Source of the DNA: Escherichia coli 042 | GTDB taxonomy: Bacteria > Pseudomonadota > Gammaproteobacteria > Enterobacterales > Enterobacteriaceae | Direction: 5' to 3' (one strand) | Assembly: GCF_000027125.1 (NCBI RefSeq) | Contig: NC_017626.1 | DNA length: 64,000 bases | Part shown: in pieces, positions 7,191 to 57,218 of the stretch | How positions within the stretch are numbered: the first letter of the stretch is position 1 | Layout of the letters: each line of letters starts with the position of its first letter | Translations under genes and position numbers: made by a program | Notes under the pieces: model-generated | Databases searched by the model: none | The model's input: the letters and a program-made list of their open reading frames with translations, nothing else | Told to the model about the DNA's origin: nothing

Positions 7191-9601
7191 TTGCACGTTG
7201 GTTCTGGCGCGAATGGCGTTCGCCGTCGCTATTAATTGTCTGGCTGGCGCTAAGCCTGGCGGTGGCCTGCGTGCTGGCGCTGGGCAATATCAGCGATCGC
7301 ATGGAGAAGGGCTTAAGCCAGCAAAGCCGTGAGTTTATGGCGGGCGATCGGGCGTTGCGCAGTTCGCGCGAAGTGCCGCAAGCGTGGCTGGAGGAAGCGC
7401 AAAAGCGCGGCCTGAAAGTCGGCAAGCAGCTGACTTTCGCCACCATGACATTTGCAGGCGACACACCGCAGCTGGCGAACGTCAAAGCGGTGGATGATAT
7501 CTACCCGATGTATGGCGATCTGCAAACTAATCCCCCTGGCCTGAAACCGCAGGCGGGCAGCGTATTGCTGGCCCCACGCCTGATGGCACTGCTTAACCTG
7601 AAAACGGGCGACACCATTGACGTGGGCGATGCCACCTTGCGGATTGCCGGAGAAGTGATTCAGGAACCGGATTCCGGTTTTAACCCCTTCCAGATGGCTC
7701 CGCGTCTGATGATGAATCTGGCGGATGTTGATAAAACCGGAGCCGTGCAGCCGGGGAGTCGGGTCACCTGGCGTTATAAATTCGGCGGCAGCGAGAATCA
7801 GCTCGACGGCTATGAGAAATGGTTGTTACCCCAGCTTAAACCCGAACAACGCTGGTACGGTCTGGAACAGGACGAAGGCGCGCTGGGGCGCTCGATGGAA
7901 CGCTCGCAACAGTTCCTGCTGCTTTCGGCGCTTCTGACCTTGCTGCTGGCAGTGGCAGCGGTGGCGGTGGCGATGAATCATTACTGTCGCAGTCGATACG
8001 ATCTTGTGGCGATCCTCAAAACGCTGGGGGCAGGGCGAGCGCAACTGCGTAAGCTAATCGTCGGTCAGTGGTTGATGGTGCTGGCGCTTTCAGCCGTTAC
8101 CGGCGGGGCGATAGGCCTGTTGTTCGAAAACGTGTTGATGGTGCTGCTCAAGCCCGTTCTGCCTGCTGCACTACCGCCTGCCAGCCTCTGGCCGTGGCTG
8201 TGGGCGCTGGGCACCATGACGGTCATCTCGCTGCTGGTGGGGCTACGACCGTACCGCCTGTTGTTGGCAACGCAGCCTTTACGCGTATTGCGTAATGATG
8301 TGGTCGCGAACGTCTGGCCGCTCAAGTTTTATCTGCCGATTGTCAGTGTGGTGGTTGTGCTGCTGCTCGCCGGATTAATGGGCGGCAGTATGCTGCTCTG
8401 GGCGGTGCTGGCGGGCGCGGTAGTGCTGGCTTTGCTGTGCGGTGTGCTGGGCTGGATGCTGCTGAATGTACTTCGCCGCATGACGCTGAAATCGCTACCT
8501 CTGCGCCTGGCGGTTAGCCGCCTGTTACGTCAGCCGTGGTCAACGTTAAGCCAGCTTTCGGCATTTTCGCTCTCCTTTATGCTACTGGCACTGCTGCTGG
8601 TGTTGCGTGGCGATCTGCTCGACCGCTGGCAGCAGCAGCTACCGCCAGAAAGCCCGAACTACTTTTTAATCAACATCGCCACAGAACAGGTTACACCGCT
8701 AAAAGCGTTCCTCGCGGAACATCAGATAGTCCCGGAATCATTTTATCCGGTGGTGCGGGCGCGGCTGACGGCGATTAACGACAAGCCGACAGAAGGCAAT
8801 GAAGATGAGGCGCTTAACCGCGAACTCAATCTTACCTGGCAAAATACGCGGCCCGATCATAATCCGATTGTTGCCGGTAACTGGCCGCCAAAAGCCGATG
8901 AAGTGTCGATGGAAGAGGGGCTGGCGAAACGCTTAAACGTTGCCCTCGGAGATACCGTGACTTTTATGGGCGATACCCAGGAGTTCCGCGCTAAAGTGAC
9001 CAGCCTGCGCAAAGTGGACTGGGAAAGTCTGCGGCCTAATTTCTATTTTATTTTCCCGGAAGGGGCATTAGACGGGCAGCCGCAGAGCTGGCTTACCAGT
9101 TTCCGCTGGGAGAATGGCAACGGCATGTTGACGCAACTCAACCGCCAGTTCCCGACCATTAGCCTGTTAGACATTGGCGCGATTTTAAAACAGGTCGGCC
9201 AGGTGCTGGAGCAGGTAAGTCGGGCGCTGGAAGTGATGGTGGTGCTGGTCACCGCCTGCGGTATGTTGCTGTTGCTGGCACAGGTGCAGGTGGGAATGCG
9301 TCAGCGTCATCAGGAGCTGGTGGTGTGGCGCACACTCGGTGCGGGGAAAAAACTACTACGCACGACATTGTGGTGTGAGTTCGCCATGCTCGGGTTTGTT
9401 TCTGGCCTGGTGGCCGCAATTGGTGCGGAAACGGCGCTGGCAGTGTTGCAGGCGAAAGTGTTTGATTTCCCGTGGGAGCCAGACTGGCGATTGTGGGTTG
9501 TGCTGCCGTGCAGCGGTGCGCTGCTGCTGTCGCTTTTCGGCGGCTGGCTGGGTGCGCGACTGGTTAAGGGTAAGGCGCTGTTCAGGCAGTTTGCGGGGTG
9601 A
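7187..9601 (+). CDS. ybbP: ABC transporter permease YbbP (FtsX-like, two permease domains)
   Basis: 804 aa polytopic membrane protein, 4-bp overlap with ybbA. Confidence 0.9.
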   Translation: MIARWFWREWRSPSLLIVWLALSLAVACVLALGNISDRMEKGLSQQSREFMAGDRALRSSREVPQAWLEEAQKRGLKVGKQLTFATMTFAGDTPQLANVKAVDDIYPMYGDLQTNPPGLKPQAGSVLLAPRLMALLNLKTGDTIDVGDATLRIAGEVIQEPDSGFNPFQMAPRLMMNLADVDKTGAVQPGSRVTWRYKFGGSENQLDGYEKWLLPQLKPEQRWYGLEQDEGALGRSMERSQQFLLLSALLTLLLAVAAVAVAMNHYCRSRYDLVAILKTLGAGRAQLRKLIVGQWLMVLALSAVTGGAIGLLFENVLMVLLKPVLPAALPPASLWPWLWALGTMTVISLLVGLRPYRLLLATQPLRVLRNDVVANVWPLKFYLPIVSVVVVLLLAGLMGGSMLLWAVLAGAVVLALLCGVLGWMLLNVLRRMTLKSLPLRLAVSRLLRQPWSTLSQLSAFSLSFMLLALLLVLRGDLLDRWQQQLPPESPNYFLINIATEQVTPLKAFLAEHQIVPESFYPVVRARLTAINDKPTEGNEDEALNRELNLTWQNTRPDHNPIVAGNWPPKADEVSMEEGLAKRLNVALGDTVTFMGDTQEFRAKVTSLRKVDWESLRPNFYFIFPEGALDGQPQSWLTSFRWENGNGMLTQLNRQFPTISLLDIGAILKQVGQVLEQVSRALEVMVVLVTACGMLLLLAQVQVGMRQRHQELVVWRTLGAGKKLLRTTLWCEFAMLGFVSGLVAAIGAETALAVLQAKVFDFPWEPDWRLWVVLPCSGALLLSLFGGWLGARLVKGKALFRQFAG

Positions 9602-9609
9602 TGACAGGC

Positions 9610-9725
9610 GTTAGATTGCCTGATGCGCTACGCTTAACAGGCCCACGAGGATCGTGCAATATATTGATTTTGCAAGATTGTGTAGGCCGGATAAGGCGTT
9701 TACGCCGCATCTGGCATGAACAGTG
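9610..9725. repeat. REP-type palindromic units
   Basis: Motifs gcctgatgcgctacgc... and tgtaggccggataaggcgtttacgccgcatctggc directly after the ybbP stop. Confidence 0.6.
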
Positions 9726-9818
9726 TGCATTTTGGCAATAAATATGAAACCAACTGTCATGTCGGTTTTTTTAAAGGCCGAAGGTGGTAAACCTTCGGCC
9801 TTAGCTACGTTTCCTCAG

Positions 9819-46703: not shown

Positions 46704-49676
46704 TTACCAGTGCACTCCAATGGTGAGAAACGCGTTGTTGCGCTCTCCGTTACGTTGATTAATTGCCTTAAAGGTATGTTGATACTCGACGCCGAGACTG
46801 ACTTTGTGCGGCCAGGCGTCGTAGTGCGTCTCGCCGGTCCAGATATTCCAGCGGACCCCGACACCGCCAAGCTGCGCGCCCTGAGTGCCTTTATCACGAT
46901 AACCGTTGTCCTGAACGTGAGCGTAAGGCTCAATAGTCTGTCCGTTCGCCACCTTCTGATGCCAGCTGACGCGATAATCTGCCGTCCACGCCTGAATATC
47001 CTGGCGGACATATTGCGCCGCATCGAGGTACAGGTTTTGGGCAAACCAGCCTGAACCGTTCGGGTGCCATTCATCGCTGTATTTGCCGCCATTAAAGAAT
47101 GAGGCGCTGGCGCGCAGCATGGTATCGGATGCGCCATTTTGCCCGTTCAGCGGCAACTGCTGTTCGACGGCGAGGAAAAAGATCTGATCGCGCAGCGGCT
47201 TCCAGCGCAGACCGGTGCCGGACATCGGATTTTTCACCGGCATCATCACCCCGTTTTCTCCGGTATCGGCAAATACACGGCTGTAAACCGAGAGCAGGTC
47301 GCCTTCCAGCAGCATATTGCGTCCGATGCGGTACTCGGCTTCCAGTTGCCCGTAGCTACGATAGCTTTTCCCTGGCGCTGCGCCGCCGACATTATTGTTA
47401 GCGGTACTCATCGCGCCGGAACGCAAGCCGATGGAAGAATCGAAACTGAACGTCCAGCGGCGACCGACCTCCTCATGCAGACGGCGGAAATTGAAGCGTT
47501 GCTGATTTTGCTCTGGGGTCAGTGGGGTTATCAGCGCCTGATTATCAATGTCATCAATCACCAGCCGGGCGTAGTGCTGCGTCGCAGGCATGTCATCCAG
47601 ACGCTGGTTCACGTAGGCCAGTTGTCGGATAAGTGCCGGATCGTCCGGTAGCCCTTTATGCGCCTGTTCGAGCATTTCCCGCGACTGTGCGATATCACCG
47701 CTATCCCACAAGGCGTAACCGAGCGCTGCCTGGGTGTTGCTATTATTCGGCTCCAGTTCCAGCGCGGCGCGCAAATCACTCACTGCCGCTGGGACATTAT
47801 GACGTTGGCGATAAATTGTCGCCCGCGCAACGTAAGCGTTGGCAGAAGGCGCAATATTGATTGAGCGCGTGAGATCGTTCAGTGCGAGTTCCGGCTGACC
47901 AGGAATGTAACGTTGCGCATGCAGCCACCAGTAGAGGGCATTGTTTCCCAGCCCACGTTGTTCTGCCTGCTGAAGCCAGCGATCGCGAGCCGCACCATTT
48001 CCTGCCGCCTGGGCGGTATTGGCAGCAGCAAGCAGATCCTCATTGCTCATGTCGTGAAGACTGATTTTCTGCCAGGCCGCCAGTGCGGTGGCGTAGTCCT
48101 CAACCTGATACGCTTGATAGGCTACCGCACGATGTTGCCAGGCGTTCGGTTGTCGTTGTTCGGCCTGAAGCCATGCATACAACGCCACACCGGGTAGCGT
48201 GTCCCGATAACACTTTGCCAGACGGTTCCAGGCGGCGGCATCGTAGGAAGGCGACATATCGCCCAGCAAGCGAACTATTGCCGGGCAATTATCTGCAATA
48301 CCCGGCAACTGACTTTGCCACTGACGTTGCTCCGCCAGCGGTAAGGGTTTCGATAAAATCGCCACCTTCGCCGGCGTTGCCAGGTAAGGATGACTTTCCA
48401 GCAGAGACGCCAGTCGCGCCATTAAAGTCTGGCTGACACGCGCATCGCCCTGGAAAGGATAGCGTTGCAGCAATAAATCGGCAGCTTCGCGTGACTGCTC
48501 GTTCTGCATCAGTTGCCAGGTCAGTTGATCCAGGCGGGTAAGATTTGCCGGTTCTTGCTGATACAGCAATCGTGCCAGACGCAGAGCTTCAGCCTTGTTA
48601 TGGGTCGCTACGCTAACGGTATAACGCTCCTCAAGCATTTCATTGGCGGGGAGGGTGGCGAGCAGTTTTTGCGCTGCGTCGTACTGACCTTCTTTTAACA
48701 GCACCGGTAGCGTCGCGCCAACAACATACTGGCGGTTGTCGGCAAACTGTACCGTATAATTCGCCAACGCCTGAACGGGGTTGCCGCTGTATTTAGATAA
48801 CAGATAGAGCCAACTTTTCTCTTGTGCGTCCGTGGTAAATAGCGGAGTATTTTCAATGAGATAACGCTGGAGGCGTGCTTTTTCGTCACGATAAGCCAGC
48901 GCGGTCGCGTAAGTAATATATGACTGCGGATCGGTGAAGATCCCCTGTGATTGCAGCGCCAGGATCCGATCGTCCAGCTGCCCGGCAAGAAGCACATCAA
49001 ACCACTGGCGGCGTTCTGCCGCGCTTAATGTGTTCTGCTGGCGTGCTTCATTGTATAGCGTATCTGCCTGGGACCATTGCTTCAGGTAGATTGCCCGTTG
49101 CAGCAGATCGGTTCGCAGCGTTTTTCCTTCCGGCGATGCAGCAAACGTCGCATCGTTCAGTTGCGCTCTGGCGACAGGTAATTGTGCCAGCCGCAGGGCA
49201 TTCTGCCCAACTTCACTGCGACAACGCAGGGTCGGCGCAGCATCGCACGCTTTTTGCTGGGCAAGCAGTTCTTCAACTGTCGTAACGCTTTTCACTTCAA
49301 CTGGAATAGCCGCCAGACTGCGCTCAAGTCGGGCATCTCCTGGGTGACGTTTCAGTTGATCCTCAAGCAACAGCCGCGCCCGGTCATCATGACCAAAATA
49401 GCGATAGGCTTCCGCAAGGTATAAAGCCAGCGGAATATTATCCGGCACCTGCTGGTGTATATATTCAAATTCGCGGATGGCGGTTGCTTCGTCGTTATTT
49501 TTCTGTGCCTTCAGCGCCTTATCGAGACGGGGATAAATAACAAAATGGCGATAATCGCTCAGCCCCAGCTCTTCTGCGCTGGTGCCGATATTGTCTGCGA
49601 GTGCGCTGGTACTCAATAAAGACGTCAGCAGTAAACCAGACCATCCGATGACGCGATTAAGGTTATTCTCCTTCAT
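46704..49676 (-). CDS. nfrA: outer membrane protein NfrA (TPR-rich periplasmic part plus C-terminal beta-barrel-like region)
   Basis: Start at MKENNLNRVIGWSGLLL gives 990 aa with signal peptide; the start overlaps the end of nfrB. Confidence 0.9.
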   Translation of the reverse strand: MKENNLNRVIGWSGLLLTSLLSTSALADNIGTSAEELGLSDYRHFVIYPRLDKALKAQKNNDEATAIREFEYIHQQVPDNIPLALYLAEAYRYFGHDDRARLLLEDQLKRHPGDARLERSLAAIPVEVKSVTTVEELLAQQKACDAAPTLRCRSEVGQNALRLAQLPVARAQLNDATFAASPEGKTLRTDLLQRAIYLKQWSQADTLYNEARQQNTLSAAERRQWFDVLLAGQLDDRILALQSQGIFTDPQSYITYATALAYRDEKARLQRYLIENTPLFTTDAQEKSWLYLLSKYSGNPVQALANYTVQFADNRQYVVGATLPVLLKEGQYDAAQKLLATLPANEMLEERYTVSVATHNKAEALRLARLLYQQEPANLTRLDQLTWQLMQNEQSREAADLLLQRYPFQGDARVSQTLMARLASLLESHPYLATPAKVAILSKPLPLAEQRQWQSQLPGIADNCPAIVRLLGDMSPSYDAAAWNRLAKCYRDTLPGVALYAWLQAEQRQPNAWQHRAVAYQAYQVEDYATALAAWQKISLHDMSNEDLLAAANTAQAAGNGAARDRWLQQAEQRGLGNNALYWWLHAQRYIPGQPELALNDLTRSINIAPSANAYVARATIYRQRHNVPAAVSDLRAALELEPNNSNTQAALGYALWDSGDIAQSREMLEQAHKGLPDDPALIRQLAYVNQRLDDMPATQHYARLVIDDIDNQALITPLTPEQNQQRFNFRRLHEEVGRRWTFSFDSSIGLRSGAMSTANNNVGGAAPGKSYRSYGQLEAEYRIGRNMLLEGDLLSVYSRVFADTGENGVMMPVKNPMSGTGLRWKPLRDQIFFLAVEQQLPLNGQNGASDTMLRASASFFNGGKYSDEWHPNGSGWFAQNLYLDAAQYVRQDIQAWTADYRVSWHQKVANGQTIEPYAHVQDNGYRDKGTQGAQLGGVGVRWNIWTGETHYDAWPHKVSLGVEYQHTFKAINQRNGERNNAFLTIGVHW

Positions 49677-51900
49677 TTTCGGACTCCAGTTGCGCAACCT
49701 GTTCTGTGTTTAAACCTGCTTTGAGTAATAGTGATTGCATCGAAACTTGTAATTCGCGTTGAATTGTCAGGACGCGATCCAACGTTTCCTGGCTGATAAC
49801 GCCTTCGGTGACCAAAAACTTGCCGAGCGGCAGAGAACTGCGTTCATGGCGCAATAACAACACGTTAATTGCTGAACGATTAATATGACCGAGCGTGGTC
49901 AGTATTTCGGCGAACAGGAACTGATGCGGCACATATTGCCGCCAGATTTCACCGGCCTGCTGTTCCGTGAGCCACTGATGCTGAACCGCATTGTACAACA
50001 TTGCCCGCGGATCGTGACCGCGTCGGCGCGCATACCAGTGGCGTAACCCCGTGACAATTTGTCCCCGCAGAACAATGACGTAACGCACTTTGCGTCCGAC
50101 TTTACGCGTCAGGGCCGCCAGCGAAACCGGGTCAATACCATCTTCACTGCCGACAATTAACTCATCATTTTCCAGACGCAGCGGCAGCACTGCATAATGC
50201 AGCGCCACGGAGGCCGGCATTTCGGCAATCAGTGATGAAGGGATCTGCCAGGCGTCGATCGACTCCCACGCCACGCCGTTTTGCTCTGCCAGCGCCTGTG
50301 CCAGCTGTTCGGCGCTAATCAGCCCCTGCATCAGCATTGAACCGCCCAGGCGTAGACCTTCGACGCGATTACGCAGTGCTGTATCGAGTTGTTCTTCAGT
50401 GATGACCTGATTTTCCAGCAGGATTTGACCTAACGGACGCAACGAGCGGGTATCGCCAGTCACGCTGGGGAAGTCATGCGTTGTTTTATCCCACGCGACA
50501 CGACGTGGATCGCCGTGTTGAAGTACCTGTTTTAACGCGCGCCAGTTGGCCATGAAGTTAATCAGGTTGCCCCAGAAAAGACGCAGGACAGATAGCAGCC
50601 CCTGCGTCAGGCCGTAGTAGCCAGTAACGAAAATCACCCGCTGCACGATGCGGTTAATCATCAAGCCAAAGTTTAGCCACAGCAGAGTCATTAACCATGC
50701 GCTGCCGCTGAAAATAGAAAGGAAATGCCAGGCATCGGGCCACAAACTTTCATACGCCAGCAACAGCAAAAGCTGGATCATCACCAGCATCGCGAGGAAG
50801 CTGACAAAGTTACTGATTGCCCCTTTGCGGTCGCGCCAGAGAAAGTAGTTCAGCGTCAGACTGGAGGTCCATTTGTGGGTTTTAAAGCCCTGGAAAACAA
50901 TGCCGATGATCCAGCGAGATTTTTGTCGAACCGCAGTCGAAAAGGTATCGGGGAAATATTCGCGCACGCAGATCATGTTTGACGTCCGCGCGTGCTGTAA
51001 AAATTTACGCTGCTCGCGTTCTTTGGCTTCGTCCACCACCGGAAAACGGACAAAAATTTCCGTCATACCTTTTTCTTTCAGGCGGAAACCAATGTCGTAA
51101 TCTTCAGTAAGACTCTGCACGTCGAAAGCAATACCATCACCGTCAGCTAACAGTGCGGTCACGGCGCGGCGGCTGAAACAAGTACCGACGCCTGCGCTGG
51201 GCACCTGTCCGGCGAGGGCTTCACGCACCGGAACATCTTTGCCATGCAGTTCTGAAAACTCATCAATGTAAGTCATGCTGGTGAAGTGCGTCCATTCGCG
51301 TTCGAATGGGTATACCGGGATCTGAATCAGATCTTTACGCTCGACCAGATAGTTGAACAGACGCAATTCCATCGGTGAAATTACGTCTTCGGCGTCATGC
51401 AGAATAAAACCAGCAAAAGCGAAATTGGCGCTACGCTCAAACTGGGTGATGGCGTCCAGCACGTTGTTCAGGCAGTCGGCTTTGCTGGTGGGGCCAGGAC
51501 GCGCGCAGACTACCTTATGCACGTTTGGGAAGCGAGCGCACACTTCGTCAACATCACGCTGAGTATCGGGGTCGTTGGGGTAGGTGCCAACAAAGATATG
51601 ATAGTTTTCATAGTCGAGCGTGGTCGCCGCCAGCTCGGCCATATTGCCGATGACGCCCGTTTCATTCCACGCCGGAACCATAATCGCTAACGGTTTTTCA
51701 TCTGGTTTATACAGTTCGCGGTAACTCATTCGCGGGTAGCGGCGATAAACACTCAACTTGCGTTTAATGCGGCGTACCCAGTAGACGACATCAATAAAAA
51801 AATCGTCCAGCCCGCTGATGAACATGATGACCGCTAACGTTATCGCGATTACTTTTAAGCCGTAGAGCCAGGTAGCAAAAACATCAAGAAGCCAGTCCAC
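49663..51900 (-). CDS. nfrB: inner membrane family-2 glycosyltransferase NfrB with C-terminal cyclic-di-GMP-binding region
   Basis: 745 aa; N-terminal TM, GT-2 catalytic region, additional TMs and a cytoplasmic C-terminal domain. Confidence 0.9.
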   Translation of the reverse strand: MDWLLDVFATWLYGLKVIAITLAVIMFISGLDDFFIDVVYWVRRIKRKLSVYRRYPRMSYRELYKPDEKPLAIMVPAWNETGVIGNMAELAATTLDYENYHIFVGTYPNDPDTQRDVDEVCARFPNVHKVVCARPGPTSKADCLNNVLDAITQFERSANFAFAGFILHDAEDVISPMELRLFNYLVERKDLIQIPVYPFEREWTHFTSMTYIDEFSELHGKDVPVREALAGQVPSAGVGTCFSRRAVTALLADGDGIAFDVQSLTEDYDIGFRLKEKGMTEIFVRFPVVDEAKEREQRKFLQHARTSNMICVREYFPDTFSTAVRQKSRWIIGIVFQGFKTHKWTSSLTLNYFLWRDRKGAISNFVSFLAMLVMIQLLLLLAYESLWPDAWHFLSIFSGSAWLMTLLWLNFGLMINRIVQRVIFVTGYYGLTQGLLSVLRLFWGNLINFMANWRALKQVLQHGDPRRVAWDKTTHDFPSVTGDTRSLRPLGQILLENQVITEEQLDTALRNRVEGLRLGGSMLMQGLISAEQLAQALAEQNGVAWESIDAWQIPSSLIAEMPASVALHYAVLPLRLENDELIVGSEDGIDPVSLAALTRKVGRKVRYVIVLRGQIVTGLRHWYARRRGHDPRAMLYNAVQHQWLTEQQAGEIWRQYVPHQFLFAEILTTLGHINRSAINVLLLRHERSSLPLGKFLVTEGVISQETLDRVLTIQRELQVSMQSLLLKAGLNTEQVAQLESENEGE

Positions 51901-52236: not shown

Positions 52237-52773
52237 TTATTTAAGTTTAATATTCAACCAGGAAATAAAGAACGTTAAAATAACAAAGGAAAAAACAATC
52301 AAAGAGACATTCCTGAAAAATACGTGCTCATAAAAAAGATAAAAAACGTACAAAATTGGGCACGCAACTTTCAGGACGTTTATATGTTTAGAATTCTCTT
52401 TATCTTTAAAGTTAAAATTACATAAAAATATAAAGAAATATGAAAGCATGGCTGAAAACATCATTGATAAGGCGCGATATGGCAGTCCTGAATTAAAGGT
52501 TTCGACTCCTAATAATATTGTCGATAGCGTTGCAATTATAATTGCCACTTTTTTACTAGAGGTGAAAGTAACGACAAAAAATATCAATGATATAAATAAG
52601 AAAGAAAAAAATATGTAAATATTTGTTGATATATGTACTTTATGAGGAACTGTAAAATAGGTATAACTGATTGTAATTATGATGGTAATTATTCTGTATA
52701 GCATGCATGCTAACAGGCCAATCAGTAGTTTGTTCGCAAATTTATAAGGGGATTCGCTATTGGTTGATTGCAT
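52237..52773 (-). CDS. hypothetical polytopic membrane protein (178 aa), AT-rich, island gene
   Basis: Four to six hydrophobic segments; Ile/Phe/Lys-rich composition typical of horizontally acquired genes. Confidence 0.5.
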   Translation of the reverse strand: MQSTNSESPYKFANKLLIGLLACMLYRIITIIITISYTYFTVPHKVHISTNIYIFFSFLFISLIFFVVTFTSSKKVAIIIATLSTILLGVETFNSGLPYRALSMMFSAMLSYFFIFLCNFNFKDKENSKHINVLKVACPILYVFYLFYEHVFFRNVSLIVFSFVILTFFISWLNIKLK

Positions 52774-52837
52774 GGTTATTATGCTCTTGAATTGTGTATT
52801 TTATTGGAATGTTTCTTGGTTAACTAAAACAATGCAT

Positions 52838-53266
52838 TTAATAGGTGGTGGTGTAAATATCAATGTCATACTCATTATCACAGACTACTATTACTCTACG
52901 AGTTATGTCAAAAAATAACGTTAAATCATAGGTTCCCTGTTCTCTGAAAATACTCTGCGCAAATGACGTGAAATTATTCCCATTTATAACTATTTTTACT
53001 TTACCTTCATAGATAAGCCAGCAACGAAAACATTCAGCTGTACCAGATAATGTCACTATCTGACTGATTAGAAGATTTATATTTACCGGATGAGGTAAAA
53101 AAAGTCTGTCGTTGAGGCAATCAATATTATGTGTTTGATGAAACTCTTTTCTCATTAATGAAGAGTTATCATATAGCAGGGTTATACTAAACGAGTCAAT
53201 TCCGTCAAGCTTTTGCATAAATTTGTTTGCTTTATAAATAAGCAACTTTGCTTGTGTTTTTGTCAT
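52838..53266 (-). CDS. hypothetical protein (142 aa), island gene
   Basis: ORF-track ORF, AT-rich, same orientation and tight spacing with neighbours. Confidence 0.45.
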   Translation of the reverse strand: MTKTQAKLLIYKANKFMQKLDGIDSFSITLLYDNSSLMRKEFHQTHNIDCLNDRLFLPHPVNINLLISQIVTLSGTAECFRCWLIYEGKVKIVINGNNFTSFAQSIFREQGTYDLTLFFDITRRVIVVCDNEYDIDIYTTTY

Positions 53267-53293
53267 GATGGTGATCTTTTATGCAAGGGGGAA

Positions 53294-53740
53294 TTATTGG
53301 AATTCAAATGTTTTATATTCCTCTGTAATCATCTTTAAACTTAACATAGCCATGTCTCGGGTATCTTCATCATCAGATTGTAGAGAAATATTTAATCCTT
53401 TAATTAAGGTGTTATCGGGAAAAGCCATTGCCAATAATGTATACCAACATCGGACACTTTTTATTGTCAGAGGATTTTCCAGTATGTTGGCGATATTTGA
53501 AGCTATAATGTTTTTATCACACTTGTACAAAAAATCTTCGACCAACTGATATACACCGAAGCCATCACCTTCCCCAAACGATTGTAAAAATAACGGTATG
53601 GCTTCTTCAGCAGGATTTGCAGAAAAATAAAGCCTTACATTGTTATATTTATTGATAAGTTCCTGAGTGATGTCATAATCATTTGGCATAGGTTGGTTTA
53701 GAGCAAGGAATGCTAATGCTTCTTTTTTAGTCATATTCAT
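53294..53740 (-). CDS. hypothetical protein (148 aa); possible orphan immunity protein
   Basis: ORF-track ORF, acidic and largely helical by eye; AT-rich and next to IS/Rhs remnants. Confidence 0.4.
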   Translation of the reverse strand: MNMTKKEALAFLALNQPMPNDYDITQELINKYNNVRLYFSANPAEEAIPLFLQSFGEGDGFGVYQLVEDFLYKCDKNIIASNIANILENPLTIKSVRCWYTLLAMAFPDNTLIKGLNISLQSDDEDTRDMAMLSLKMITEEYKTFEFQ

Positions 53741-54550: not shown

Positions 54551-55841
54551 CAGGGAAAGATTACGAAAGCCCGCTCCCAGCAAGGACTGACGCCAGATAG
54601 TTTCTGTCCATGGCTGCTTTTCGCATCTTACGTCTTAACCCTGCCTTGAATACCTTATCATTCGTCAAAATATTAATAGCGATGTGCCGTATCCCTGAAA
54701 ATAATTCTGCGGCGTTTCCTCTTCTTATTTTGCAGTCGTCTTCATTCATTACCACGTCCAGACGCCAGTGCAGCTTATTCTCCACGTGCCAGCGGTTTCG
54801 GATTGCTGTGGCGAACTTCTCTGCGGTTAAATCAGCACAACTGATATAATATCTGACCGTCATTTCTGGCTCTTTCTTTTGTTCTGCTATTATTGACCGA
54901 AAGGAGACTGCCACGCATAATTTCTTCAGACCTTTCCATTCAAACGTGAAATCAATAAGTTCATCAGGGACATCGCAAACAATGTGAAGACGGATTTCTT
55001 CTCTGCCGTGACTCTTTTCACTAATTGCGTAACTGTCATGCTCTGGATTATTTAATTCTTTCAGTGGGAATTTTTCCTCAAAGGCTTTATTAAGCCGCCC
55101 CTGATTTCCTTTTACAGCGAATAAATAATCACCGCCCTGTTTTTGTATCTTCTCTGCAATATCTTTCTGGCAACCCATCGCATCAGTTGTGATGATTTTT
55201 CCTTTAATATCCAGCATGTTAAGAAGTTCAGGGATAGCTGTAATCTCATTTGATTTCTCATCCGTCCTGATCTGTCCGATGACCAGACTGTGCATTGTTG
55301 AGAACGCACTAATGACATGAATCGCTCCCTTGCGGCGACTCTTGTCATAAGAATGCCGGAGTGTTTTTCCATCAATTGCGATGACGTCTTTATCATCTGA
55401 AGAATGGCAGTCACGCATCCAGTTAATAAAGCACTCGTGAAATTTTGCAGGACTGATACAGGATACAACTCTGGCAATAGTATCGTGAACAGGAATACCA
55501 TTATCAAAATCACCATATTGCTTCAAAAAATCGAGATGTGTTTCCCCAAAATCCTCTATATCTTCCCAGCCTTCTGCACCCGAAATAACGGCACAAATAG
55601 TCAACAGTAGAATATCCGATAATTTATGTTCCACTTTCCAGGCTTGTCTGTAATCGGGGATAATAGAAATATGTTCCATCAATTTTTTAAGTTCCATTTT
55701 GTTCTCCTTAATTATGTAAGGAGTATTTGATCATGTATAAGCAATAAAAAACAGCTTTAGGTAATGAGGAATATCTCAATTTGTAAACATAAAATGCGAA
55801 TTATTTAGTACAAAAAGTGTACTTCTGATGATCTTTCCCTG
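54551..55841 (-). mobile_element. H-repeat / ISAs1-family insertion sequence, copy 1 (apparently intact)
   Basis: ~1.29 kb bounded by inverted repeats cagggaaagat (54551-54561) and atctttccctg (55831-55841); contains one long transposase ORF. Confidence 0.8.
54561..55697 (-). CDS. H-repeat-associated (ISAs1-family) transposase, 378 aa
   Basis: 378-aa ORF of the size and character of E. coli Rhs-associated H-repeat proteins; a second disrupted copy lies at 56.7-58.6 kb. Confidence 0.8.
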
Positions 55842-56045
55842 GGAGGTGATACTGACCGTCTGCCCGAATTCGTCATAGAGGAAAAACGTCGCGCCGCCCT
55901 CCGGGTCAATTTCACACACCGGAAGCCGGTCTTCACTGAAGCGGATAATGGTGGTATGCCCCAGCGAATCAGTCATCTCCAGCTCATGGCAGAAATCATT
56001 CCATACAAAGTGGTAGTCGTAGTACCCGCCGTCGCCCAACAGCAA
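55842..56045 (-). pseudogene. YD-repeat (Rhs-like) gene fragment truncated by the H-repeat
   Basis: YD-type repeat signature (...CEIDPEGGATFFLYDEFGQTVSITSQ) runs into the element end; no upstream Rhs core. Confidence 0.45.
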
Positions 56046-56062
56046 TCAATCATCGAATCAAA

Positions 56063-56524
56063 TTAACTTGACAAGGTTTTTATTTTTTCGTGTTCGAAAA
56101 ATAAATGTAGCATAGCGTCATTAATATTACCGCCTATAATACAAAAATAGTTATCAAAACCACCATAAAGAGCACCATCATCTGAAATAAAATATGTCAT
56201 ATGCTCAGAAAAACCAACACCAACAGGACATAAACGCTTATTGACCAATGGTTCATAGACTTCAGTTATCCATTTAGAGTCTATCCAACCAGCAGCTTTT
56301 ATTGGATCAAAATCGGATTTATCATACTCATTAGGATCTGAATAAGATTCATGCCGTACTATCAACCCTCCAAACTCTGATAAAAAATCACAAATAATTT
56401 CATTAACAAAATATTTCTTAATGGATAAACACTTTATATATTTATCTATGTTTTCTTTTCTGCCATAGTGCCATCCATTTTGCAACAGGACACTCATCAC
56501 TTGTTTATTCGTTATATGATTCAT
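56063..56524 (-). CDS. candidate immunity protein for the upstream deaminase-like toxin tip (153 aa)
   Basis: Starts 2 nt after the toxin-fragment stop (TAATTATG), the usual toxin-immunity coupling; family not assigned from sequence alone. Confidence 0.45.
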   Translation of the reverse strand: MNHITNKQVMSVLLQNGWHYGRKENIDKYIKCLSIKKYFVNEIICDFLSEFGGLIVRHESYSDPNEYDKSDFDPIKAAGWIDSKWITEVYEPLVNKRLCPVGVGFSEHMTYFISDDGALYGGFDNYFCIIGGNINDAMLHLFFEHEKIKTLSS

Positions 56525-56526
56525 AA

Positions 56527-56704
56527 TTACCCCGTTAATACATCAATTCCTAAATATTTGAAAATTTCCTGACAGTTTCTACAGTTCGGAAAAGCACTTC
56601 CATCACCAGTATGAACTGTAGCCATTTCCAAATCATGCAACGATGAATTATCTTTGAGAGCTTTATTCACCGCATCTATTTCAGCACAATTATTAACAGC
56701 CCAA
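56527..56704 (-). pseudogene. truncated C-terminal toxin domain with nucleotide deaminase-like motifs
   Basis: Native ~59 codons after the IS boundary: ...NNCAEIDAVNKAL...(33 aa)...AFPNCRNCQEIF..., i.e. a [C/H]AE helix plus CxxC pair with deaminase-fold spacing; the 5' part is replaced by the H-repeat. Confidence 0.5.
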
Positions 56705-57218
56705 GGCAAGATTACGAAAGCCCGCACCCCGCAAGGACTGCCGCCAGGTAGTTTCTGTCCATGGCTGCTTTTCGCATCTTACGTCTTAACCCTGCCTTGA
56801 ATACCTTATCATTCGTTAAAATATTAATAGCGATGTGCCGTATCCCTGAAAATAATTCTGCGGCGTTTCCTCTTCTTATTTTGCAGTCGTCTTCATTCAT
56901 TACCACGTCCAGACGCCAGTGCAGCTTATTCTCCACGTGCCAGTGGTTTCGGATTGCTGTGGCGAACTTCTCTGCGGTTAAATCAGCAGAACTGATATAA
57001 TATCTGACCGTCATTTCTGGCTCTTTCTTTTGTTCTGCTATTATTGACCGAAAGGAGACTGCCACGCATAATTTCTTCAGACCTTTCCATTCAAACGTGA
57101 AATCAATAAGTTCATCAGGGACATCGCAAACAATGTGAAGACGGATTTCTTCTCTGCCGTGACTCTTTTCACTCATTGCGTAACTGTTATGCTCTGGATT
57201 ATTGGTAATGACTCCAAC

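Follow-up and report, generated by a model that had tools for sequence, protein, structure and literature searches.

Why does Escherichia coli 042 carry a lone SUKH-3 immunity gene beside the end of an H-repeat, and what was the short reading frame that runs up to it? A preliminary description of this locus, drawn from the letters alone, had seen in that frame the tip of a truncated, deaminase-like toxin and in the 153-aa ORF behind it a candidate immunity gene. Within the window, by which we mean the whole 64,000-nucleotide stretch of contig NC_017626.1 that was analysed, the features at issue are the following:

54551..55841, minus strand: ISEc1 copy 1, 1291 bp, whose 378-aa transposase is intact (54561-55697) and which has the same orientation as copy 2
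55842..56037, minus strand: first part of a further orphan Rhs core fragment, which follows the immunity gene and is cut by ISEc1 copy 1 at 55841/55842
56063..56524, minus strand: intact 153-aa SUKH-3 immunity gene, starting with an ATG 2 nt past the toxin stop, preceded at 5-8 nt by GGGG
56527..56706, minus strand: final 59 codons and stop of an Rhs C-terminal toxin domain, predicted to be a YwqJ-like deaminase
56702..58769, minus strand: ISEc1 copy 2, an H-repeat of the ISAs1 family with 1291 bp of its own sequence, whose end adjoins the toxin remnant
57204..57971, minus strand: IS1, 768 bp, within ISEc1 copy 2, recognised by its sequence and its InsA/InsB ORFs

Very probably, the locus is the dead remnant of an Rhs polymorphic-toxin module. 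It sits in an E. coli island of ~11.6 kb between nfrB (49663-51900) and cusS (from 63565), as annotated in the near-identical sequence NZ_AP025657, and the argument for this reading starts from the anatomy of the remnant itself.

The remnant is spanned by a 66-aa ORF (56527-56727, minus strand, by the ORF list and the sequence) that opens with a GTG at 56727 and takes its first seven codons from the end of ISEc1. Homology to Salmonella begins at CCTTGG (56706), which gives 59 native codons and agrees with the ~59 that the preliminary description had counted to the left of the H-repeat boundary. The ISEc1/toxin junction is ambiguous over ~5 nt: a full-length 1291-bp ISEc1 would start at 56702 with CAAGGCAAGAT, as compared with CAGGGAAAGAT at the other three IS ends, and nucleotides 56702-56706 fit either an IS end (then reading CAAGG, versus CAGGG at the other three ISEc1 ends) or native sequence, so that the native part comes to 57-59 codons depending on how the junction is read. 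For the 66-aa ORF, the Cys of CAE counts as residue 7 and the Pro of PNCRNC as residue 40, which is the spacing of 33 residues that had been reported. Equally borne out is the close linkage of the two frames: the toxin stop (TAA, 56527-56529) is followed after 2 nt (tt) by the ATG (56522-56524) of the 153-aa ORF on the minus strand, and to judge from this gap and the GGGG the two ORFs may be translationally coupled. The N-terminal part of the toxin had been described as missing, and it is indeed cut off at the H-repeat, whose end adjoins toxin codon 74; an Rhs core ending in PxxxxDPxGL ahead of the toxin is absent from the window, ISEc1 replacing everything upstream of residue 74. What the window holds is thus a remnant of an Rhs toxin/immunity module rather than a module. 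G+C content is 0.37 in the toxin tip and 0.31 in the immunity gene, compared with 0.49 for the window, and a single base in the 865-bp segment between the ISEc1 copies (56544) sets the window apart from NZ_AP025657, encoding the Asp of Salmonella rather than the Asn of other E. coli.

A full-length toxin with this ending, which the preliminary description had suggested seeking in other genomes, exists in Salmonella. A word-indexed protein search with the 57-aa tip returned four short fragments only, one of them a 66-aa Salmonella enterica protein of 88% identity, and the contig encoding it (GCA_037560425, locus L003) carries the full module. There, an orphan Rhs frame (7591-9771) ends, past a frameshift, in ...NLYQYAPDPLGWIDPWGL and gives way to a 132-aa domain that finishes in ...VLTG like the window, followed by TGA, tt and the ATG of a 153-aa SUKH-3 gene. 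The Rhs core ends in ...DPLGWIDPWGL, and the DPxGL motif is also found in the relatives P0006, P0008, P0011 and P0099. The frameshift (L003 9740-9790) lies within the Rhs DPxGL region of what is the sole full-length copy found in an enterobacterial genome; SymE-toxin genes are close by on the opposite strand. Relative to this domain, the E. coli remnant comprises residues 74-132, that is helix 2 (CAE), strand 3, helix 3 (CxxC) and strand 4, and its protein is 88% identical to the tail of the full-length Salmonella domain. The window is colinear with L003 from 56706 to 55841, a stretch that takes in the toxin tip, the SUKH-3 gene and ~200 bp at the start of the Rhs orphan behind it. That last fragment (55842..56037) gives a weak YD-repeat match and is 82% identical to L003 10904-11100 in the orphan after the SUKH-3 gene, which in the Salmonella array is an Rhs-AHH nuclease with an Imm11 gene. 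The closest intact relative, P0006 (L004 4001-5044), has a toxin of 64% identity in a 347-aa orphan Rhs protein followed by SUKH-3, and carries CGE in place of CAE in helix 2; the L005 toxin, P0011, is a 1078-aa Rhs protein. Judged by the Salmonella relative and by what is established for Rhs toxins, the parent module would have consisted of an Rhs shell ending in the DPxGL self-cleavage motif and a toxin domain of ~130 aa.

As to the fold of this domain, the window remnant on its own matches Pfam YwqJ-deaminase (PF14431) marginally (E 0.01, score 16.5, model 68-134 of 138) and the full-length Salmonella domain does so at E 0.0013-0.002. Since these scores are weak, the family assignment rests on relatives, profile and predicted fold. 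Word-indexed searches are too shallow here, one extra distant match being all they added with the 132-aa Salmonella domain, and the family becomes visible through exhaustive HMMER only: searched against 1.84 billion representatives, the domain has 325 relatives at E<=1e-3 and 85 at 1e-10. For 123 of the 127 near-complete matches, no more than 37 residues separate its end from the C-terminus; the carrier proteins span about 150 to 3250 residues, and several have an Rhs DPxGL just upstream of the domain or PAAR/RHS Pfam domains. Among 54 members aligned, Pfam YwqJ-deaminase matches 33 at E<=1e-3 (best 8e-9) and dCMP_cyt_deam_1 matches 10, and the alignment has Glu82, Cys115 and Cys118 invariant with Cys80 conserved in at least 90%, in line with the earlier proposal that [H/C]AE and CxxC are the zinc motifs of deaminases.

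Searching the PDB with a single sequence gave nothing meaningful, whereas with the family profile the top ten matches, led by one at E 2.4e-4, are cytidine deaminases without exception and align exactly on CAE and CxxC; a close sequence relative of the toxin family with a solved structure was not found in these PDB searches. AlphaFold2, run on the 132-aa Salmonella domain with the family alignment, returned a model with a pLDDT of 95.5. Its first half has a helix at 10-28, strands at 35-41 and 47-51 and a short helix at 61-66, and its second half a helix at 81-91 (CAE), a strand at 99-105, a helix at 116-125 (CxxC) and a short strand at 128-129, an order that matches the deaminase fold (helix 1, strands 1-2, helix 2, strand 3, helix 3, strand 4). 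The expected deaminase-fold match is therefore seen for the relatives, through profile and predicted structure, with the fragment alone staying marginal. On this footing the domain would be a deaminase-fold toxin of the YwqJ-like clade, 'nucleotide deaminase' being an assignment at the level of the predicted fold. That CAE and CxxC resemble a deaminase site by chance, in a domain of some other fold, could be argued from the weak single-sequence Pfam E-values if these stood alone; it is contradicted by family conservation, PDB profile matches and predicted fold, and we give it next to no credence. The parent toxin, then, would have been a zinc-dependent YwqJ-like deaminase in which the zinc is held by three cysteines (those of CAE and CxxC) while the CAE glutamate serves as proton shuttle.

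The YwqJ clade was defined by Iyer, Zhang, Rogozin and Aravind in 2011 (PMC3239186), whose Table 1 gives as its structural traits [CH]xE in helix 2, an insert before helix 2 and a chain truncated after helix 3 or strand 4, and as its context RHS, PAAR and other delivery modules with SUKH3 and Imm6 as immunity. With YwqJ-like toxins, whose prototype is the B. subtilis LXG toxin YwqJ with its antitoxin YwqK, the module shares the C-terminal position of the domain, including in RHS proteins, and with the clade it shares CxE in helix 2, CxxC in helix 3, an end after helix 3 or strand 4 and a SUKH-3 partner. It differs in that the window keeps only the last 45% of the domain and in that this enterobacterial subgroup has Asn at the Gly position of Gx[CH]xE. 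The insert before helix 2 is present in the Salmonella domain (residues 52-79, with the helix at 61-66) and deleted in the window; by sequence reading, Salmonella has INS where many members carry IHP, so that, unlike in these, Asn stands in for the insert His. Delivery differs as well, being by Rhs (T6SS-type) for this branch of the family and by LXG/T7SS for B. subtilis YwqJ, which Kobayashi 2021 (PMC8321402) found to be toxic, to be neutralised by YwqK and to leave chromosome and rRNA intact.

The T6SS deaminase toxins SsdA (P. syringae, 9c63) and DddA (B. cenocepacia, 6u08) belong to clades different from that of the YwqJ-like model, which housekeeping deaminases match better than either of them; their substrates (ssDNA and dsDNA, respectively) are not transferable to the present family. 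The Salmonella SPI-6 deaminase (PMC10469887) was considered as the same toxin and rejected, since it is of the BURPS668_1122 type with SUKH_5 immunity. In the literature that was searched, YwqJ did not come up in base-editor work. The association of YwqJ, RHS and SUKH-3 has been known since 2011, and the E. coli remnant is a further case of it.

Can the remnant still act? Its 59 codons retain all four presumed catalytic and zinc-binding residues (C80, E82, C115 and C118, with both CAE and CRNC kept in the window) on under half of the fold and with no delivery part. Gone are helix 1, strands 1 and 2 and the insert, and the missing part bears the near-invariant residues G45, L63, P68 and S71. 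With half of the sheet and the Rhs delivery shell lost, we infer that an active or deliverable toxin is excluded, and it seems safe to say that the 59-residue piece is almost certainly inactive as a toxin. A different view would have the 66-aa ORF translated and keeping some activity, being either toxic itself or a zinc-binding partner for the immunity protein, so that the pair works as a small toxin-antitoxin module. The frame is open from its GTG with the four residues in place, some public annotations list it as a hypothetical protein, and an Rhs orphan is reported as a type II TA module in Salmonella (PMC7043789). We nevertheless rate this view as very improbable, given that two of the four modelled sheet strands are lost along with helix 1 and the insert, that RefSeq has no annotation of the ORF and that its start is made of IS sequence.

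Nor does the reading of a dead remnant leave room for revival. Orphan Rhs toxin/immunity modules are well described (Poole et al. 2011, PMC3150448; Koskiniemi et al. 2014, PMC3967940), and they resemble the locus in having a low-G+C tip and immunity gene and then a new Rhs core start. Typical modules retain a piece of rhs core through which they can recombine with the main rhs gene, whereas here the core and half of the toxin domain have been replaced by ISEc1. Because of this replacement, and with no full rhs gene within the island, reactivation by homologous recombination from the window copy would be impossible.

In contrast to the toxin, its partner is intact. In the parent module, a tightly linked SUKH-3 gene would have supplied the producer with an immunity protein that binds the toxin and neutralises it. 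The 153-aa protein matches SUKH-3 (PF14433) at E 6e-12 over residues 7-141 and almost the full Pfam model (3-143 of 146), a SUKH fold is supported by a structure model and fold search, and RefSeq names the protein SUKH-3 domain-containing protein; in the PDB search no solved relative was matched by the sequence profile. Among NCBIfam models, none matches the toxin tip, the immunity protein or the small ORFs beside them. The preliminary description's view of this ORF as an immunity candidate, to be checked against immunity families, is upheld by these results together with the SUKH-3 genes that follow the toxin in three relatives. Toxin and SUKH-3 gene are separated by 2 nt both in the window and in Salmonella L003, by 3 nt in L004 and by 15 nt in L005, and at L006 no gene is called within 1.2 kb downstream of the toxin. 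Identity to the E. coli SUKH-3 protein drops as the toxins diverge, from 84% (L003) over 47% (L004) to 21% (L005), which is expected of cognate pairs.

How the toxin came to be cut may be read from the insertion sequences. H-repeats are associated with E. coli Rhs elements in the older Rhs literature, and the ISEc1 copies resemble these components in their 1291 bp, CAGGGAAAGAT ends, 378-aa transposase and Rhs-fragment setting; compared with other H-repeats, they are unusual solely in the IS1 that one copy carries. The two copies are direct repeats of 1291 bp each (IS1 removed), with 48 mismatches over 1291 bp, and they bracket the 865-bp segment of toxin tip, immunity gene and Rhs fragment. 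Copy 2 is dead, its transposase having an internal stop and the IS1 interruption, and in the relative it is annotated as an ISAs1 family transposase pseudogene with an internal stop. The IS1 is flanked by a 9-bp target duplication, TGGATTATT, at 57195-57203 and 57972-57980 and is absent from the otherwise near-identical NZ_AP025657, so that by this comparison it is strain-specific. Around ISEc1 copy 2 no target duplication is evident, and the DNA past 58769 is unrelated to the toxin and includes a ketoacyl-synthase-like gene fragment. We considered a simple insertion of ISEc1 into the toxin and rejected it, as the DNA on the far side (58769 on) is unrelated and a target duplication is lacking; for the same two reasons, the truncation would rather have come about through an IS-associated deletion or rearrangement. 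In such an event the ISEc1 end would have come to sit at toxin codon 74, with loss of the Rhs core and the first 73 residues.

This arrangement is not confined to strain 042. The 659-bp piece of tip and immunity gene occurs as a single copy in 148 of 5,426 complete E. coli genomes, with at least 99.7% identity in 147 of them; a query across both IS junctions is covered in 147 E. coli genomes, and the flanking island parts are present in ~151 of the 5,426, almost without variation. Given the shared IS junctions and flanking island parts, the arrangement appears to have arisen once and then to have been inherited with the island. In strain MS20675 (NZ_CP082056; L002 8001-8147) the toxin tip is down to 147 bp and adjoins an IS1, and ompC-like and lambdoid prophage genes replace the immunity gene and the remaining island, a further IS1-associated rearrangement. 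The N-terminal half of the toxin is absent from all 5,426 complete genomes in a distant blastn search, in which the conserved Rhs motif alone matched. For this reason the SUKH-3 gene would, at the sensitivity of blastn, be an orphan in E. coli.

Set against Salmonella, the E. coli tip shows 12 synonymous and 8 non-synonymous differences (dN/dS 0.14), and the immunity gene shows 56 and 32 (dN/dS 0.065). These ratios show that purifying selection acted on both during most of their separate history. They reflect mostly the time before the truncation and are silent on present selection of the E. coli immunity gene. Between 56063-56706 and L003 10022-10665, synonymous divergence is much lower in the tip (12/37 sites) than in the immunity gene (56/88; Fisher p 0.0017), and the first 60 nt of the tip hold 4 differences only; a recombination breakpoint or a DNA-level constraint may be the cause.

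Why, then, is the immunity gene left intact? It could be useful against related enterobacterial toxins or just not have decayed yet. The former would make it a selected and expressed orphan immunity gene that guards against Rhs-delivered YwqJ-like deaminases of Salmonella or neighbours, with the toxin remnant surviving as its leader (RBS, perhaps promoter). Orphan immunity genes are a known phenomenon (PMC3150448, PMC10539506 and PMC12247911). At this locus the ORF is intact in 147 of 147 genomes with the full piece, and a Salmonella toxin exists that is 88% identical over the kept part; with the cognate N-terminal half in 0 of 5,426 complete E. coli genomes, any immunity use must be directed at foreign toxins. 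However, the copies are at least 99.7% identical, so that intactness may just mean a recent or clonal event, and a simple scan, which says nothing firm on expression, saw no sigma-70-like promoter upstream of the gene on the minus strand. Immunity tends, moreover, to be specific to the allele, and between the E. coli and Salmonella proteins 16% of residues are different. We regard such a guarding role as tentative and somewhat short of an even chance.

The second answer, that both pieces are neutral debris and that the immunity gene, now functionless, is intact for the shortness of time since the IS event, we place at about even odds. In its favour, a 462-bp ORF at 31% G+C that stays open by chance over short times is unremarkable, the island is nearly invariant in its ~151 of 5,426 genomes, MS20675 has lost the immunity gene through its further IS1-associated rearrangement, and the island is degenerate throughout, with fragments of toxin, PAAR, Rhs and ketoacyl-synthase genes, a dead ISEc1 and an IS1. 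Its other contents, on either side of the bracketed segment, are these:

52237-53740, minus strand: three low-G+C ORFs (148, 142 and 178 aa) downstream of ISEc1 copy 1, in the same ~151 genomes
58865-59176, minus strand: 103-aa ORF fragment of a 3-oxoacyl-ACP synthase (NF004798, last 73 of 349 positions, E 1.6e-8)
59269-60279, minus strand: 336-aa paralogue-like ORF (relative's annotation)
60311-60625, minus strand: PAAR-like fragment (relative's annotation)
60679-61719 and 61831-62871, minus strand: two 346-aa WD40/BNR-like paralogues with identical C-terminal halves (relative's annotation)
62897-63196, minus strand: HNH/endonuclease VII toxin-2 fragment (relative's annotation)

The synthase fragment lies just upstream of ISEc1 copy 2, and by the relative's annotation the minus-strand stretch 59269-63196 forms a second degenerate effector array. 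At the other end, the 148-, 142- and 178-aa ORFs have no NCBIfam match, two of them (53294-53740 and 52838-53266) have no Pfam match, and all three are possibly further orphan immunity genes.

The remnant of a known toxin/immunity association in an ordinary relic adds little new biology, IS-riddled Rhs relics being commonplace in E. coli. The 180-bp toxin remnant has no RefSeq annotation, and recognising it does explain the lone SUKH-3 gene at this locus, which is of value for annotation. The Salmonella relative and its family of 325 members form a compact (~130 aa), three-cysteine group of predicted deaminase-fold toxins that may be of some interest to toxin-deaminase mining, and the locus offers a simple test case for whether orphan immunity genes work across species. 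More speculatively, and in our estimation unlikely, SUKH-3 would be maintained as orphan immunity in ~3% of E. coli against YwqJ-like Rhs toxins of Salmonella and other enterobacteria, the 865-bp segment maybe having been captured or moved as an IS-bounded unit; if true, this would amount to cross-species immunity carried by IS elements.
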